Shown here: positions 4,867-44,404 of the stretch, in pieces
How positions within the stretch are numbered: the first letter of the stretch is position 1
Layout: each line of letters begins with the position of its first letter
Sequence record: PZ386948.1
DNA: 64,000 nucleotides
DNA from: a phage
Reading direction: 5' to 3' (one strand)
Notes under the pieces: model-generated
The model's database searches: none
Told to the model about the DNA's origin: nothing
Seen by the model: only the letters and a program-made list of their open reading frames with translations
Program-made: the position numbers and the translations under genes

Positions 4867-6549
4867 TTAAACCATTACAGTAAATCGACCAACTTTCTTC
4901 ATTTGAAGATGCTGACCATATTCTTGCGGGTCATGGTCTTTATGTGAAATTATAAAAACATTAGTGTTTTTCATTGAATTTATAATATTAGCTACACCTT
5001 TAATACCTTCGGCATCAAATGACCCATCAAACACTTCATCGAGTATTAATGTACTAATACTAACACCAGATACAATAGAAGCAATATCACGCCAAGTAAA
5101 TAAAAGAGCAATATCAATTCGTGCTTTTTCACCTTCACTAAATGAAGCATAACTAAAATCTTCACGACCACGGGATTTAATTGTCTCATTAAATTCTTCA
5201 TCTAATGTAAACACATAATCCGCTTCCATTATTTTAAGATAATGGTTAATCTGCTTATTAAATAATGGAATGTACTTTTTAATAATAGCACCTTTAATAC
5301 CAGAATCTTTGAGCATATCAGTCAAAATTCCTCGGTGGTATTTTTCCATTACTAAATTAGTTTTTGTCTTAACAATTTTATCAAGTTCTTCTTGAAGCAG
5401 TGCTATTTCATCAGCATGGTCAATAAACTCAGAAGATGCTTTTTCTATAGCCGCTTTAACTTTTTTGGCTTTATCTACCGTCGTGATTAGAGATTGCTTT
5501 TTATTGCGAATATCATTTGCCAACGACTGTTGGGTTTTAATATTATCTCGGTATTCATCAACAAGAACTTTTAAATTATCACGATGTGTTGAAAGCTGTT
5601 CAAACGAATGCGTACATTCAGAAACTTTATCTTTAATTTTAGAAACAACTTTATCACCGGAACTCAATTGTGACAAACAGGTTGGACATAATCCACCTTC
5701 GTGATACATATTAATGACTTTATTATACGAGTCAATTTTTGATTTAATTAAAACTGCTTCTTGACCGATTTTATTAAATGCATCAGTCGGGTCTTCATCC
5801 AAAACAATATTAACTAATCTTTCGTTAGCTTCTTCTATTTCCGATTTTAGCGTTCTAGCTTCTTTTGCCAAATCATCATACATATTTTGCAGACGAGTAA
5901 GGTTGTCACCCGTTAATTTTTTCTGGCGTTCAACGTTATCATTATATATTTTAATTTGTTGGATAATACTATCTTTTTTAACATCAAGCACTTGGTTCTG
6001 CGAATTTAATTCACGTATTAGTGCTTTATTAAGCTTATCCATTTCAGCTAATGTTCCTACCTCAAGCAGGTCTTCCACAAGCTTTCTTCGCGCAGGGGTC
6101 GACAAACCCATGAAAGGGGTATACCCTGCTGTACCAAGGACAACAATCTGCTTGAAACTGGCATATGACATTCCGATAAGCTGTTCAAATTCTGCTTGGA
6201 AATCTTTACTGCTGGCAGATTCATTAAGACGTGTACCGTTAACGGTGATTTCGAAAACGTTTGGTTTTTGTCCTCTTTTGATATAGTACTTTTTCTCATC
6301 ATATTCCATCCACAGTTCAACTAAAAGTTCTTTCTTATTTGTGCTGTTTATTAATTGACCTTTCTTTACATCACGAAATGGTTTGCCAAAAAGCCCAAAT
6401 GTGATGGCTTCTAACATAGTAGACTTACCACCGCCATTTCGGCCAGTAATAAGAGTTTTTTGAACCTTATCTAATTGAATGTCAACTCCATTTTGACCAA
6501 CTGACATTATATTTTTATATTTTACTCTATTAAGTTTAAATGATTTCAT
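4867..6549 (-). CDS. 46: recombination endonuclease subunit gp46 (Rad50/SbcC-like ATPase)
   Basis: 560 aa; Walker A GRNGGGKST near N-terminus, long central coiled coil with CPTC zinc hook, C-terminal LILDEVFDGSFD signature region. Confidence 0.9.
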   Translation of the reverse strand: MKSFKLNRVKYKNIMSVGQNGVDIQLDKVQKTLITGRNGGGKSTMLEAITFGLFGKPFRDVKKGQLINSTNKKELLVELWMEYDEKKYYIKRGQKPNVFEITVNGTRLNESASSKDFQAEFEQLIGMSYASFKQIVVLGTAGYTPFMGLSTPARRKLVEDLLEVGTLAEMDKLNKALIRELNSQNQVLDVKKDSIIQQIKIYNDNVERQKKLTGDNLTRLQNMYDDLAKEARTLKSEIEEANERLVNIVLDEDPTDAFNKIGQEAVLIKSKIDSYNKVINMYHEGGLCPTCLSQLSSGDKVVSKIKDKVSECTHSFEQLSTHRDNLKVLVDEYRDNIKTQQSLANDIRNKKQSLITTVDKAKKVKAAIEKASSEFIDHADEIALLQEELDKIVKTKTNLVMEKYHRGILTDMLKDSGIKGAIIKKYIPLFNKQINHYLKIMEADYVFTLDEEFNETIKSRGREDFSYASFSEGEKARIDIALLFTWRDIASIVSGVSISTLILDEVFDGSFDAEGIKGVANIINSMKNTNVFIISHKDHDPQEYGQHLQMKKVGRFTVMV

Positions 6550-40496: not shown

Positions 40497-40526
40497 ATAG
40501 TACCATGGAAGGACAAGGATGTAAAC
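40497..40526 (-). promoter_or_regulatory. early-type promoter (GTTTACA-17-TGGTACTAT)
   Basis: Same motif family, upstream of ORF start 40453. Confidence 0.5.
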
Positions 40527-40659
40527 CGTTTTGTGAAAAAATTTTTAAAAAGTTTTGGGGAATTCTAGGGCAGGAAGGGGAAATCAAAGGATAGGATAAT
40601 ATATTATAAAGGGTAGAAACTAAATGATGTCTAGAGAGGCCTGGAAAGGCCTAGATACC

Positions 40660-40687
40660 AAAAAGCCCCAACCTTTCGGTCGGGGCT
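40660..40687 (-). terminator. intrinsic terminator, copy 1 of repeated hairpin
   Basis: aaaaagccccaacctttcggtcggggct; GC stem plus U-tract on minus strand; identical copy at 41205-41232. Confidence 0.6.
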
Positions 40688-40694
40688 AAGAATG

Positions 40695-41168
40695 TTATTT
40701 GATTTGTTTAGCAGACCAAATGCGATCTTTAATAATTTTTTGGATGTCTTCAACATACACAAGAGAGTGAGCATGTGGATTATCTTTGAAACTATAAGCA
40801 CGAGCTAGTTTTTGGCCTTCAGTTTTGATTACTAAAAGCTCTTTAAGGATAGCTTCATATTTGGAGATAATTCCTTTAACAATATTTTTTTCTTGTGCAG
40901 CTTTAGGATCTGCTTTAGGAGCAGGTTTACCCGAAGCCTTTGCAAAAGCAGCGCCAGTAGCAACTAAACTTTTCCAGGCCATACTAACTGCATTTCCCGT
41001 AAATCCTTCCGCTTTCATGTCGCGTGCGAACTGGAATCGCGATTCATCAGAAGCATCTTTATAAGAATATTTACCCGCTGCAATGGCTGCTTTTGCGACA
41101 GCTTGAATTTCGGTGCTAGATGCTTCATTTAACACCGCTTCATTTAAAAATTGAGTATATGATTTCAT
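40695..41168 (-). CDS. internal-protein-like ORF with capsid-targeting-like N-terminus
   Basis: 157 aa; N-terminus MKSYTQFLNEA resembles T-even internal-protein targeting sequence MKTYQEFIAEA; Ala/Lys-rich. Confidence 0.45.
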   Translation of the reverse strand: MKSYTQFLNEAVLNEASSTEIQAVAKAAIAAGKYSYKDASDESRFQFARDMKAEGFTGNAVSMAWKSLVATGAAFAKASGKPAPKADPKAAQEKNIVKGIISKYEAILKELLVIKTEGQKLARAYSFKDNPHAHSLVYVEDIQKIIKDRIWSAKQIK

Positions 41169-41204
41169 CTTATTTCCTGTTTTAATTCGTGGTTTTAATA
41201 TACT

Positions 41205-41232
41205 TATTTATACTAAAAAGCCCCAACCTTTC
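41205..41232 (-). terminator. intrinsic terminator, copy 2 of repeated hairpin
   Basis: Identical 28-nt sequence to 40660-40687. Confidence 0.6.
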
Positions 41233-41251
41233 GGTCGGGGCTAAGCCTTGC

Positions 41252-41550
41252 GGCAACCTTGTCGGGGTTCCACCTGCTAAGGCAAGTGTTTGTACGAAAC
41301 GCCGGGATTCGAACCCGGTTATTAAGCAGTTGACGCTACTCAATATTTTTAAAAGGCCATATCTCGACCATATCCGAACGTTCCGTCAAAAACGCTACTC
41401 GGCTTACGGCAAAGATATTTCCTCGAATCGATAATTCGGTGCGCCGTTTCTGCTGTGATGTAAGAGGGCATCAATAAACGCAAAGATTATTAACGCAATT
41501 CCTTACTCAGGGAACATCAGTCCGACGACTTACCGGTAGCGACCCGGTTT
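41252..41550 (-). ncRNA. candidate structured small RNA
   Basis: ~300 nt without ORF; minus-strand perfect T-arm-like hairpin CCGGGUUCGAAUCCCGG; intrinsic terminator at 41205-41232. Confidence 0.35.
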
Positions 41551-41551
41551 C

Positions 41552-41902
41552 TTAATATTCTTTTAAAGCATCAATCTGTTTACGGCGTTCACGCCATAAA
41601 TCAATTGCTTCATACGCGGATTCAACATTTCGAATTGGACGGCATTTATATAAAGATTTGTGATTTTGATATTGCGTAGATAACGGAATTTTATCTAAAA
41701 GGTCTTTACGTTCAAAGTATTCGTAACCATCTAAGCCAAATGAACGATTTTTGAGAAATTGCCAATGACCAAATTCGTTTTGAATATAAATATAATCCGC
41801 ATGTTGATAAAGTAAATTAATTTCACGAAATGAGATATGTTTTTCATATTCATTGAAGTAAAATGTTAAATCATGAACTACTAAATAAACATTACCTTTC
41901 AT
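41552..41902 (-). CDS. hypothetical protein
   Basis: 116 aa ORF adjacent to tRNA-Arg. Confidence 0.45.
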   Translation of the reverse strand: MKGNVYLVVHDLTFYFNEYEKHISFREINLLYQHADYIYIQNEFGHWQFLKNRSFGLDGYEYFERKDLLDKIPLSTQYQNHKSLYKCRPIRNVESAYEAIDLWRERRKQIDALKEY

Positions 41903-41920
41903 ATTTTCCTCACTTATAAT

Positions 41921-41996
41921 TGGTCGAGGCAGTAGGGATCGAACCTACGACCTAGGACTTAGAAGGTCCTTGCTCTTCCTTCTGAGCTATGCCCCG
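41921..41996 (-). tRNA. tRNA-Arg (anticodon UCU)
   Basis: Minus-strand cloverleaf read by eye: anticodon arm AGGAC-CUUCUAA-GUCCU, T-arm GUAGG-UUCGAUC-CCUAC, encoded CCA. Confidence 0.8.
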
Positions 41997-42000
41997 TAAT

Positions 42001-42087
42001 TGGGGTGACCGATGGGAGTCGAACCACCCGAGTCGCAATGACAATGGATTTACAGTCCACACCGCTACCTCTACGGGATAACTCCCC
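42001..42087 (-). other. tRNA-like element, non-canonical (possible degenerate tRNA or small stable RNA)
   Basis: Has GGUUCGA T-loop-like motif, anticodon-like arm with GUA in loop and 3' CCA, but acceptor and T stems do not pair canonically by eye. Confidence 0.3.
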
Positions 42088-42100
42088 TTAATTCTTAATT

Positions 42101-42175
42101 TGGTGGCCCTGGGTGGAATTGAACCACCATCTGGCGATTATGAGTCGCTTGCTTGAACCTTCCAGCTACAGGGCC
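42101..42175 (-). tRNA. tRNA with CAU anticodon (Ile2-type or Met)
   Basis: Acceptor GGCCCUG/CAGGGCC, anticodon loop CUCAUAA, T-loop UUCAAUU, CCA encoded. Confidence 0.8.
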
Positions 42176-42176
42176 T

Positions 42177-42252
42177 TGGTGCTGATTGACGGAATCGAAC
42201 CGCCGACCTTCTCATTACAAGTGAGTTGCTCTACCTACTGAGCTAAATCAGC
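42177..42252 (-). tRNA. tRNA-Thr (anticodon UGU)
   Basis: Acceptor GCUGAUU/AAUCAGC, anticodon loop CUUGUAA, T-arm GGCGGUUCGAUUCCGUC. Confidence 0.8.
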
Positions 42253-42257
42253 AAAAC

Positions 42258-42347
42258 TGGCGGAGGCGATAGGATTTGAACCTATGAGTCGCCGGAGCGA
42301 CTGCCGGTTTTCAAGACCGGTGCATTAAACCACTCTGCCACGCCTCC
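42258..42347 (-). tRNA. tRNA-Ser (anticodon UGA)
   Basis: 90 nt type-II tRNA; reverse complement matches remembered T4 tRNA-Ser (GGAGGCGUGGCAGAGUGG...). Confidence 0.9.
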
Positions 42348-42353
42348 AAATAT

Positions 42354-43004
42354 TTATATATTGTTAATTTGATTTAGAATTCTTTTTGCTTGAGTATGAC
42401 TTACGCCAATATGCTTAGCATATTTAGACAATTCGCCACGTTTAGAAAAATCATATAATTTAGAAATTTCTATTCTTCTTTTTCTTTCATCCGCAGAAAC
42501 TTTTGCTTCGTTTGCTTTTGCTATTTTACGTTTAGCTTCTTGAGAATGAGTTTTACCAGCAAAGCCATTCTTCATTAATCCATTTGAAGACCATCCTTTT
42601 AATTTTCCGTTAGAATGTGCCTTTTTAACACCCAATGAAATTAATTCGCGTTGCTGATCTGTCATAGGATAATTATTTATATGATCCCATCCACCTTCAC
42701 CTCCAAGTTTTAAATTATACACATCTGGTCTATTTAAAAACTCTTCTGTGACAATATTTTTCTCGGCTTCAAGCATAGATTCTTTATCGTCAAAATACTC
42801 TAATATTTCTTTAGAAAAATTTTCTATACCATATTTATCTTGGGCTCTTTTTAATAATTTACCAGAACCCATATATCCATCATCTAAATTTTCGGTAGAA
42901 TGCACACCAATATAAATTTTATTATTAATTTTATTTGTTATTTTATAAAGATAAAAATGCATATCAGTCCCTAATAAAGAACTGAGCGTCTCACGACGAG
43001 TCAT
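42354..43004 (-). CDS. GIY-YIG homing endonuclease (SegB-like)
   Basis: 216 aa; GIY-YIG core YLYKITNKINNKIYIGV; C-terminal HTH-like tail; embedded between tRNA-Ser and tRNA-Gly. Confidence 0.75.
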   Translation of the reverse strand: MTRRETLSSLLGTDMHFYLYKITNKINNKIYIGVHSTENLDDGYMGSGKLLKRAQDKYGIENFSKEILEYFDDKESMLEAEKNIVTEEFLNRPDVYNLKLGGEGGWDHINNYPMTDQQRELISLGVKKAHSNGKLKGWSSNGLMKNGFAGKTHSQEAKRKIAKANEAKVSADERKRRIEISKLYDFSKRGELSKYAKHIGVSHTQAKRILNQINNI

Positions 43005-43008
43005 AAAT

Positions 43009-43082
<74 letters not shown>

Positions 43083-43087
43083 AAATT

Positions 43088-43174
43088 TGGTGCGAGAAGT
43101 GGGACTCGAACCCACAAGGAAATCATTCCGCAGCATTTTAAGTGCTGTGCCTTTACCAATTTGACCATTCTCGC
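43088..43174 (-). tRNA. tRNA-Leu (anticodon UAA)
   Basis: 87 nt type-II tRNA; reverse complement matches remembered T4 tRNA-Leu (GCGAGAAUGGUCAAAUUGG...). Confidence 0.9.
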
Positions 43175-43180
43175 GCTATA

Positions 43181-43813
43181 TTATTTATTACGTGAAAAAG
43201 ACTGTTCTATCAATTCTGGACACTTTCGTTCTATCCATTTTCTAGCTTTTTGTGGGCTTATACCTATTATTTTAGCAGCTTTACTAACCCATCCAAATTT
43301 AGAATAATCGATTTTAACTAATTCTTCGTAAATTTCATCAGTTAAAATCTTTTCATTAATATTTACCAGTAAATGATATAATTTATTATCATTAGCAATT
43401 TTAATGAATCTTTTATAGTTTCCGCCTTTACTTAAACCTAATGAAGTAATTGCAGATGATATAGTAGCCGAATTTAATAGTGCGTTTAAAATTTCTTCAT
43501 CACTAACATTATAACGCTTTTTATTATTTTTAATATTTTTACCAGCAAAAGTATCAGTTTGCGAATGGCAGTTTGGACATAATAATCTTAAATTTGATTT
43601 AAGATGATTTTTGTTATTTCCATCAATATGGTCTAATTGCAGAACAATATGCTTATTTTGCCATTTTGAAATTTTACAAATTGCACACTCATATGGAAAA
43701 ATATTTTCTTTTATTATTTTGTCTTTCAGCTTTCCTGTACTAAAATTTGGATGTTTTCCTTCAAAAATTTCAGCTAATTTAGTATCCATAATATGATTCC
43801 CAATTATTAACAA
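43181..43813 (-). CDS. HNH homing endonuclease with zinc-finger and C-terminal HTH-like tail
   Basis: 210 aa; CAIC...HIDGNNKNH...NLRLLCPNCH; abuts tRNA-Leu. Confidence 0.7.
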   Translation of the reverse strand: MLIIGNHIMDTKLAEIFEGKHPNFSTGKLKDKIIKENIFPYECAICKISKWQNKHIVLQLDHIDGNNKNHLKSNLRLLCPNCHSQTDTFAGKNIKNNKKRYNVSDEEILNALLNSATISSAITSLGLSKGGNYKRFIKIANDNKLYHLLVNINEKILTDEIYEELVKIDYSKFGWVSKAAKIIGISPQKARKWIERKCPELIEQSFSRNK

Positions 43814-43888
43814 AGGCTCTCTAACAAGAACCCTTGATGATAGAGGGTATTAATCAGTGCGGTATGAGTTAATAATAACAAATAATTC

Positions 43889-44404
43889 TTAAAGCAAATT
43901 AAACATTTTAACGGTCGGCAAAACAATTTCTTTTTCTATATAAGAGTATTTAACACTCTCAACTACACGCAAAAAATCATAATCATAATACTCAGAAGCA
44001 TTACCTAAAATATTAATAAGTCCTTCAAGCACTTTATTACCATTCACAAAGAATAAGTCAAATACGCGTTCTTCGTCTTCTTCGGATTTATTACCAAGGT
44101 CAACTTCTATATCAAAGACCTTTTTAATGAATTCTGGATAAAGTTGTTCTGAGAACAGTCCTTCAACCAAGTATTCATAAATAAAAAGCGATTGCTCGCT
44201 GAACAAGCCATTACCACAATAACGTTCAGCTTTAGTACTAGAATGTCTACTTTTAAACTTCTTTAAAAGATATTGAAATTGTAAGATTTCATGCTCTTCT
44301 ACGCCAAACAGTGTTTTAGTTTTATAGTTGTCACCATCATTTTCCCAGGTAGTGACATCAATTACGTAACCCTGTGGAATTGTAGTACCTAAACAAATAT
44401 TCAT
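43889..44404 (-). CDS. hypothetical protein
   Basis: 171 aa ORF. Confidence 0.45.
   Translation of the reverse strand: MNICLGTTIPQGYVIDVTTWENDGDNYKTKTLFGVEEHEILQFQYLLKKFKSRHSSTKAERYCGNGLFSEQSLFIYEYLVEGLFSEQLYPEFIKKVFDIEVDLGNKSEEDEERVFDLFFVNGNKVLEGLINILGNASEYYDYDFLRVVESVKYSYIEKEIVLPTVKMFNLL

Follow-up and report, generated by a model that had tools for sequence, protein, structure and literature searches.

The small RNAs rnaC and rnaD of bacteriophage T4 have long been known, and both were sequenced as RNAs in the 1970s. The T4 reference annotation gives rnaC a length of 139 nt ("small, stable RNA; species 1 RNA") and rnaD one of 119 nt ("species 2 RNA"), and it places the pair right after tRNA-Arg. 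In T4, the eight tRNAs and the species I and II RNAs all derive from one primary transcript of ~1.75 kb, which begins upstream of the tRNA genes, and transcription of the cluster stops behind the gene for species I RNA (PMC2330249). RNAC and RNAD are late RNAs in T4, seen by RNA-seq and Northern blot as discrete stable species (PMC9697503), and the roles of both are stated to be unknown (PMC3014915, PMC9697503, PMC12685909). Moreover, when a T4-like phage was adapted to the E. coli host ECOR34, a convergent SNP in rnaD was reported from three lines, and with it virulence on ECOR34 rose from 0.17 to 0.98 (PMC12685909). Here, we analyze the interval 41252-41550 of a 64,000-nt stretch of phage DNA (the window; sequence record PZ386948.1), which a preliminary description had put forward as a possible gene for a T4-like stable small RNA, equipped with a tRNA T-arm-like hairpin and a terminator of its own.

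Identity and layout of the locus

The resemblance to the T4 small stable RNAs near the tRNA genes is borne out both by alignment to T4 rnaC and rnaD and by the annotation of phage Aplg8. However, the preliminary description had envisaged a single RNA gene, whereas the interval holds two adjacent genes on the minus strand, with rnaC directly downstream of rnaD. The comparison with T4 that it had recommended gives base-for-base alignments to both RNAs: T4 rnaD (NC_000866 71053-71171) matches window positions 41438-41556 at 117 of 120 positions (97.5%), and T4 rnaC (NC_000866 70908-71046) matches 41293-41431 at 137 of 139 (98.6%), while the 50-nt trailer and the terminator that follow are identical to T4 at 79 of 83 positions. 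The features of the locus, in the direction of the minus strand, are as follows.

41438-41556, minus strand: rnaD (species 2 RNA), 119 nt; ends transferred from the T4/Aplg8 annotation
41432-41437, minus strand: A/U-rich spacer GAAUUA, 6 nt, between rnaD and rnaC
41293-41431, minus strand: rnaC (species 1 RNA), 139 nt; assigned by homology to T4, ends transferred from T4
41243-41292, minus strand: conserved 3' trailer, ~50 nt, between the mature rnaC 3' end and the terminator
41215-41242, minus strand: predicted intrinsic terminator, with stem 41219-41242 and U-run 41215-41219

This layout shifts the boundaries that had been proposed. Drawn at 41550, the upper edge leaves out the last 6 nt of rnaD as annotated from T4 (up to 41556); at the lower end, the interval had been taken to run up to the terminator, but the conserved trailer of ~50 nt (41243-41292) separates mature rnaC from it. 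An intrinsic terminator does close the minus-strand unit, as had been claimed, although it is located at 41215-41242 and not at 41205-41232, a placement about 10 bases too low. The predicted structure consists of a 10-bp stem with seven G-C pairs, a GAAA loop and a UUUUU run, it lies 50 nt beyond rnaC, and Aplg8 has a terminator annotated in the corresponding position. The fold of trailer plus terminator comprises small hairpins (z = -4.8).

A megablast search with 41170-41560 retrieved 761 phage records, nearly all of them T4-like phages of enterobacteria, and the 100% matches include Aplg8, in which the identical stretch is annotated as "rnaC", "rnaD" and "terminator". Covariance model R1 scores the rnaC of the window at 169.8 bits. 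Judged by sequence and context, the two genes are members of the T4 rnaC and rnaD families, and it is very likely that the interval represents T4-type rnaD and rnaC as the last two products of a minus-strand tRNA operon, excised from a read-through precursor.

Database records treat this locus unevenly. The record of Shigella phage CM8 (NC_054939.1) is 100% identical to the window over 4.6 kb and is blank over the stretch, with no CDS, and most other matched records among those listed show a "hypothetical protein" or nothing there, rnaC or rnaD being named in a few (Aplg8, RB3, Kha5h and ATK47).

Coding potential

The earlier statement that the interval lacks ORFs of at least 60 aa is correct for ATG starts, but an 81-aa ORF with a GTG start overlaps it on the plus strand (41189-41434), running antisense through the terminator and the RNA genes and bearing no coding signature. 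A small protein encoded in the interval would have in its favor the presence of this ORF, along with the fact that nearly all listed phage records carry a "hypothetical protein" or no feature here and few name rnaC or rnaD. Nevertheless, we regard such a protein as extremely improbable, since the ORF lacks an ATG start and lies opposite a terminator and two known RNA genes, and since the frame that is open in the window is interrupted in T4, VR25 and other relatives. Moreover, the variable columns show no preference for any codon position of this ORF (16/17/18), the homologous copies differ by 1-nt indels, the variation is instead compensatory in RNA helices, and the identical CM8 RefSeq record has no CDS there. 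No reading frame is kept open across the 17 rnaC and 15 rnaD homologues, and a conserved short coding frame, which the preliminary description had set against an RNA gene, is hence absent among them. The stretch is non-coding.

rnaC folds as a tRNA-like four-way junction

The minimum free energy (MFE) of rnaC is -50.2 kcal/mol (z = -4.55; matched by 0 of 200 shuffles), and the corresponding fold is a four-way junction made of a terminal stem, a 60-nt arm entered through a 3-bp helix, a 10-bp hairpin and a T-arm. Its elements, together with the evidence for each, are listed here.

41424-41430, minus strand: 5' strand CGAUUCG of the acceptor-like stem (rnaC positions 2-8), pairing with 41295-41301
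41359-41418, minus strand: long arm (positions 14-73), 60 nt, with apical loop UUGACG at 41384-41389; covariation
41320-41345, minus strand: hairpin 2, 10 bp, with loop CGUCAA at 41330-41335; covariation
41302-41318, minus strand: T-arm mimic CCGGG-UUCGAAU-CCCGG; unique match in the window and one compensatory pair
41295-41301, minus strand: 3' strand CGUUUCG of the acceptor-like stem (positions 131-137), followed by the tail UACAA; comparative alignment

The T-arm-like hairpin reported in the preliminary description (CCGGGTTCGAATCCCGG; 41302-41318, minus strand) is real: it is not a chance occurrence and constitutes the 3' domain of rnaC. The element CCGGGUUCGAAUCCCGG combines a perfect 5-bp stem with the consensus of the tRNA T-loop (7-nt UUCRANY), and this motif has no other match in the 64-kb window even when two mismatches are allowed, 0.01 matches being expected from shuffles. 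As in tRNA, the acceptor-like stem abuts the T-stem with zero intervening bases, so that it stacks on the T-arm.

Comparative analysis was carried out on rnaC homologues from GenBank (Gaprivervirus VR25, Winklervirus Kc304 and Karamvirus myPSH1140) and IMG/VR. When 17 distinct sequences were aligned with MAFFT, a structure-blind procedure, RNAalifold returned the same structure as the MFE prediction, with 99.4% of the alignment cells paired (~40% for slid controls) and 12 compensatory pairs, a level of covariation reached by 0 of 500 shuffles. A covariance model then recovered a divergent copy, L068 (90.6 bits), whose long arm is unrelated in sequence yet has the same shape. With L068 included, the set comprises 21 distinct sequences and compensatory change appears at 23 of the 50 pairs, in an alignment that was fitted to the model and hence leans towards it. 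These changes affect 11 of the 16 outer-helix and 3 of the 7 apical-helix pairs of the long arm, again with L068 counted, and 7 of the 10 pairs of hairpin 2. In the acceptor-like stem, pair 4:135 changes from A-U to G-C in 9 of the 21 sequences and the tandem U.U is invariant, and the middle pair of the T-stem changes from G-C to U-A in seven of the 21. The loops and the 3' tail of rnaC are invariant over four genera, and the UACAA tail is retained regardless of the downstream sequence. The T-loop is canonical in most homologues and reads UGCAUUC or UGCAUGC in the Winklervirus-type copies. The secondary structure of rnaC is a tRNA-like four-way junction.

Two of the loops are of particular relevance to the overall shape of the molecule. 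The apical loop of the long arm (UUGACG) and the loop of hairpin 2 (CGUCAA) are exact complements, and both are invariant in the 21 distinct sequences; L068 keeps the UUGACG loop on a completely different stem. Given this complementarity, the two loops probably form a kissing contact that would pack the two long arms together. Since neither loop varies, covariation cannot confirm the contact, and the invariance could equally reflect a protein or RNA partner shared by both loops. Pattern scans of IMG/VR and a metagenome scan for divergent rnaC returned, apart from L068, near-identical T4-like copies or chance matches, and a 31-nt degenerate rnaC pattern had no match in 185,579 GTDB species genomes.

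rnaD carries a hypervariable hairpin in an almost invariant scaffold

The predicted fold of rnaD consists of a 5' hairpin, a G/C-rich closing helix and a long irregular hairpin, and its folding energy is weakly better than that of shuffles (z from -0.4 to -2.3). Two of its elements are needed below.

41532-41548, minus strand: 5' hairpin ACCGG-GUCGCUA-CCGGU, 5 bp with a 7-nt loop; predicted in all four alleles
41456-41508, minus strand: central hairpin, hypervariable between phages; allele comparison and folding

In 15 distinct sequences, the 5' ~48 nt and the 3' ~20 nt are almost invariant, and because the scaffold is so nearly constant in this sample it gives no covariation. Inserted into it, the distal long hairpin occurs as at least four mutually unalignable alleles, each of which folds as a hairpin. 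The 3' end reads ACCA in T4, ACCG in the window and ACCU or ACAG elsewhere. We also considered rnaD as a tRNA mimic and rejected this assignment: no acceptor/T-arm arrangement was found, no T-loop is present in the 5' hairpin (loop GUCGCUA), and the 3' ACCA of T4 varies between phages.

The exchange of the central hairpin between phages would suit a reading in which rnaC and rnaD are regulatory sRNAs that base-pair with phage or host mRNAs, with the variable hairpin as the specificity region, and the literature does loosely term them "small regulatory RNAs" (PMC9697503). We find this quite unlikely. The longest complementarity of rnaC or rnaD within the 64-kb window is 12-13 nt, inside the range of 10-14 nt seen for shuffled rnaD, and no antisense target above chance was found in the rest of the window; moreover, the variable part of rnaD is predicted to be mostly double-stranded. 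A blastn search of 5,426 E. coli genomes revealed no rnaC or rnaD homologue, although short seed pairings are below the reach of BLAST. On the basis of this search and of the GTDB pattern scan above, derivation of the RNAs from the host was rejected.

The 5' flank of rnaD differs from that in T4. There, rnaD starts 1 nt after tRNA-Arg, whereas in the window a 116-aa ORF (phrog_3355; 41552-41902) is located between tRNA-Arg and rnaD, and the first 5 nt of rnaD overlap its stop codon. Since this ORF replaces the abutting tRNA-Arg, the 5' end of rnaD cannot match that of T4 here, and the way in which it is made probably differs too.

Operon context and distribution

Upstream of rnaD and rnaC, between 41921 and 43174, ARAGORN predicts six minus-strand tRNA genes (Arg, Met, Thr, Ser, Gly and Leu). 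The cluster also includes an obvious pseudo-tRNA. The anatomy of the locus fits the T4 picture, as the genes share one strand, tRNA-like spacing, A/U-rich spacers and one terminator. The spacer on the 5' side of rnaC is 5-6 nt long and A-rich in all contexts, being AAAUUA in T4, UAAUUA in VR25 and AACAA or AAACAA in Kc304 and myPSH1140, where a tRNA precedes it.

The two RNAs do not always travel together. rnaD occurs without rnaC in Dhakavirus IME08 and several IMG/VR contigs, with the trailer and terminator directly following, and the trailer is conserved in this position, right after rnaD, in each of the rnaC-less phages IME08, L034, L038, L039, L043 and L047. Conversely, rnaC occurs without rnaD in Karamvirus and Winklervirus-type phages, where it is embedded in the tRNA array and flanked on either side by spacers of 5-8 nt (between Ile and Trp, directly preceding the latter, in Kc304, and in the order Trp-rnaC-Gly in myPSH1140, L007 and L024), while in L068 it follows a protein gene. 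As each RNA occurs alone in some genera, neither is indispensable to the operon.

This distribution bears on the possibility that the region is a cis-acting module which serves the tRNA operon in 3' processing, stability or termination (e.g., by admitting an endonuclease or by blocking 3' exonucleases). In Tequatrovirus, Gaprivervirus and Dhakavirus, the RNAs invariably occupy the end position before the terminator, trailer and terminator travel along even in the absence of rnaC, and the region contains A/U-rich spacers and stable hairpins, all of which such a module would explain. However, rnaC stands in the middle of the array, with more tRNAs after it, in Karamvirus and Winklervirus-type phages, and after a protein gene in L068; moreover, the RNAs are excised in T4 as discrete stable species (PMC9697503), which a pure cis element would not need. 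Hence, we hold a role purely in cis to be doubtful.

Proposed biogenesis and function

Co-transcription, processing from a single precursor and late accumulation are taken from the T4 literature, and in the window they would translate into the following course. Transcription would pass through the tRNA genes, rnaD and rnaC and stop at the hairpin and U-run at 41215-41242, and the two RNAs would be cut from the precursor at the short A/U-rich spacers, like the neighboring tRNAs. The GAAUUA spacer is the presumed site of endonucleolytic processing, for which we infer a nuclease. Both RNAs would then accumulate because they are compactly folded, and in the case of rnaC the acceptor/T-arm minihelix, together with the compact fold, may give access to tRNA-type end processing and confer stability. 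We consider the identity and biogenesis of rnaC and rnaD near certain. The presence of the two genes at the end of a T4-type phage tRNA operon is, as such, already known and an ordinary find.

What the RNAs do once released is a matter for more cautious proposals. Possibly they do nothing: they could be functionless by-products, that is, decayed tRNA genes that are still excised and persist through tight folding alone. T4 remains viable on laboratory hosts when the tRNA region is deleted, the cluster in the window has an obvious pseudo-tRNA, each of the two RNAs is missing in some genera, and rnaC retains the acceptor/T-arm module within a cloverleaf-like topology, to the extent that ARAGORN calls the 3' 95 nt of two homologues tRNAs. 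Nonetheless, this seems improbable to us, given that conservation is far above that of the flanks (98-100% across phages with differing neighbor genes), that the loops and the 3' tail are held constant over four genera while 23 pairs show compensatory change, and that L068 swapped a whole arm and kept its loop. The adaptive, convergent rnaD SNP (PMC12685909) also speaks against decay.

We tentatively propose that rnaC may instead act in trans, as a partial tRNA mimic, on a factor that recognizes tRNA shape. Because the T-loop of the Winklervirus-type copies is not canonical, models that need T-loop-specific recognition are weakened. More speculatively, and with considerable doubt, rnaC might be a decoy or cofactor that offers just the acceptor/T-arm half of a tRNA to a shape-reading host factor (e.g., a tRNA-cleaving immune nuclease), with the central hairpin of rnaD as a host-specificity module under diversifying selection. 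In the part of the literature available to us, the one hint at function concerns rnaD. Several tRNA-cleaving defense systems and phage tRNA countermeasures to them are documented, which makes a decoy role of rnaC conceivable, and a host-specificity role of rnaD would explain the convergent SNP selected on ECOR34. If this reading were true, RNAs that have been orphans for 50 years would turn out to be RNA-based counter-defense or host-range determinants.

Two consequences follow for practical work. First, both RNA genes are without annotation in the CM8 RefSeq record and are covered by spurious "hypothetical protein" CDSs in most of the related GenBank records listed. Second, the comparative structure is a source of concrete mutants for functional studies, namely in the four-way junction, the complementary loops, the UACAA tail and the hairpin alleles of rnaD.

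Comparison with tRNA, tmRNA and other tRNA mimics

The structure-based search that had been suggested for this interval gave chance-level matches only: with Rfam 15 at E <= 10 over 40500-44000, the interval was hit by isrK (16.5 bits, E = 2.4) and anti-hemB (14.3 bits, E = 7.7), and no curated family reached its gathering threshold there. Rfam 15 appears to have no model for rnaC or rnaD. The tRNA model itself (RF00005) has no match to the interval at E <= 10, and ARAGORN makes zero tRNA or tmRNA calls in it.

With tRNA, rnaC shares the junction of four helices, the 7-bp terminal stem that runs directly into a stem of 5 bp with the 7-nt loop UUCGAAU, and a place in the tRNA array with tRNA-like spacers. 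It differs from tRNA in its length of 139 nt and in lacking an encoded CCA, a D-arm and an anticodon arm of 5 bp and 7 nt; the 60-nt arm and the 10-bp hairpin with its 6-nt loop stand in place of these two arms. Moreover, the acceptor-like stem of seven positions contains two invariant U.U mismatches and one covarying pair, and the tail is UACAA, not NCCA. Without an anticodon loop and an encoded CCA, rnaC is not a decoding tRNA; it is a tRNA mimic in shape only.

In L007 and L024, ARAGORN calls the last 95 nt of rnaC "tRNA-Phe" and "tRNA-Met", and the fold behind these calls (acceptor 46-52/132-138, internal strand ACGGAAC) was examined as an alternative. Its helix does pair in the T4-like copies, but the fold was rejected because changes across the family are anti-correlated with pairing: A.C stands in 8 of the 21 sequences, and 500 of 500 shuffles do at least as well. 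The two anticodons also conflict. These calls show the tRNA-likeness of rnaC, not tRNA identity.

The tRNA-like domain of tmRNA likewise joins an acceptor stem to a T-arm, with a large insertion between the acceptor strands in place of the remaining tRNA body, as in rnaC. Unlike tmRNA, rnaC ends without CCA, contains neither a tag reading frame nor a series of pseudoknots, and has A-U or G-C at pair 3:70 instead of G3.U70. Identity as a tmRNA was rejected, since neither ARAGORN nor Rfam places a tmRNA in the interval and no frame is conserved. The single match to the tmRNA family is at chance level and falls outside the interval, at 42050-42128 among the tRNA genes.

Partial likeness to tRNA without a decoding role is also a feature of the bacterial and phage YrlA (Y-RNA-like) mimics and of viral tRNA-like structures. 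The corresponding Rfam families had no match in the interval at E <= 10, and rnaC is without the long Ro-binding terminal stem of the YrlA type.

The closest known counterparts of the two RNAs are those of T4 itself. The rnaD of the window has the same central-hairpin allele as T4 rnaD and the same spacer length of 6 nt to rnaC, and its rnaC shares with T4 rnaC the strand, the place before the operon terminator, the T-arm and the acceptor-like stem. The two rnaC sequences differ by two substitutions; one affects an unpaired base, and through the other a U-A pair becomes U.G.

Annotation of rnaC and rnaD and tRNA-like candidates in other phages

The database records of rnaC and rnaD, the small stable RNAs at the end of the tRNA operon, are an annotation problem. 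Among the matches listed, most GenBank records of related phages have a 'hypothetical protein' CDS over the two genes, only a few (T4, Aplg8, RB3, Kha5h and ATK47) name them, and in the record of Shigella phage CM8 the stretch identical to the window (NC_054939.1, 67000-67350) is left without any annotation. Rfam 15 apparently has no model for either RNA. Further tRNA-like candidates were found next to rnaC homologues:

L003 (Kosakonia phage Kc304), 1345-1500: ~155-nt stretch between tRNA-Ile and the rnaC homologue, recognized by eye
L068 (IMG/VR contig, 177,643 bp), 5010-5135, minus strand: ~130-nt stretch just downstream of a divergent rnaC homologue

At the 3' end of the Kc304 stretch, visual inspection shows the T-arm-like hairpin GUUGG-AUCGUUA-CCAAC, followed by a 7-nt acceptor-like strand and ACCA, and the strand GGGAGUU upstream, on the 5' side, matches the acceptor-like 3' strand; a degenerate tRNA that went uncalled is one possible reading, and a different tRNA-like RNA in the position of rnaD is the other. 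The stretch in the IMG/VR contig, which starts with AUUUGUG, ends with GUAGGUUCGAGCCCUAUGACAAAUCA and possesses a T-arm and an acceptor-like 3' strand, resembles either a tRNA carrying a long insertion or a further tRNA mimic, and ARAGORN made no call at 5010-5135.

Internal repeat, trailer and possible late transcription

The following elements lie on the minus strand of the window:

41243-41292, minus: 50-nt trailer that separates rnaC from the terminator, kept across genera
42351-42358, minus: late-promoter-like TATAAATA directly upstream of tRNA-Ser, just past the stop codon of a GIY-YIG ORF

Within rnaC, the 9-mer AGUAGCGU(U/C) occurs twice on the minus strand, at 41391-41399 and 41333-41341 (rnaC positions 33-41 and 92-100), each copy running into a loop: in one case the apical loop of the long arm, in the other the hairpin 2 loop. 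The pair may represent an internal duplication or a two-copy binding motif. The trailer folds as small hairpins and, in phages devoid of rnaC (the Dhakavirus phage IME08 and several IMG/VR contigs), comes straight after rnaD; it could be a site of processing or contribute to stability. From the TATAAATA motif at 42351-42358, the distal tRNAs could be transcribed late together with rnaD and rnaC, a possibility consistent with the late accumulation of the two RNAs reported in T4; such motifs are not enriched in the window (15 found, versus 10.8 +/- 3.1 by chance).

Probable gene gain and loss in the tRNA operon

The operon and its downstream flank carry several features that distinguish them from T4, from the annotated phage Aplg8 or from both:

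43181-43813, minus: HNH ORF, 210 aa, upstream of tRNA-Leu
42354-43004, minus: GIY-YIG SegB-like ORF, 216 aa, between tRNA-Gly and tRNA-Ser
41997-42100, minus: chimeric pseudo-tRNA between tRNA-Arg and tRNA-Met
41552-41902, minus: 116-aa ORF (phrog_3355; RefSeq note 'trna.2 protein') between tRNA-Arg and rnaD
41205-41212, minus: late-promoter-like TATAAATA of the 157-aa ORF, a motif match
40695-41168, minus: 157-aa ORF (phrog_2280), flanked by both copies of AGCCCCGACCGAAAGGTTGGGGCT

The tRNA cluster contains two free-standing homing-endonuclease genes; where the window has the HNH ORF, T4 and Aplg8 have tRNA-Gln, and where it has the SegB-like ORF, they have tRNA-Pro. The 5' three-quarters of the pseudo-tRNA are identical to Aplg8 tRNA-Tyr and its 3' end to Aplg8 tRNA-His. 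Since the Tyr/His junction falls within the common T-loop sequence GGTTCGACTCC, sequence comparison indicates that ~270 bp were deleted via recombination between T-loop repeats, which would have removed the 3' end of tRNA-Tyr, tRNA-Asn, a spacer and the 5' part of tRNA-His. ARAGORN did not call a tRNA at 41997-42100, and the Rfam tRNA model scored 22.7 bits there, below threshold. The T-loop motif is the reported cutting site of SegB-type endonucleases (PMC2330249).

Whereas a single nucleotide separates tRNA-Arg from rnaD in T4, this gap accommodates the 116-aa ORF in the window. The ORF's stop codon and the first bases of rnaD, as annotated after T4, overlap; hence, the rnaD 5' end must presumably be formed otherwise than in T4.

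Downstream, the 24-nt terminator hairpin AGCCCCGACCGAAAGGTTGGGGCT is present in two identical copies on the minus strand (41219-41242 and 40664-40687), and 40664-41242 has the appearance of a cassette of promoter, gene and terminator that was inserted through duplication of the terminator. In contrast to the window, with its two copies and the intervening ORF, T4 has one terminator and lacks the 157-aa ORF, and the sequence past the second copy in the window matches that past the lone copy of T4.
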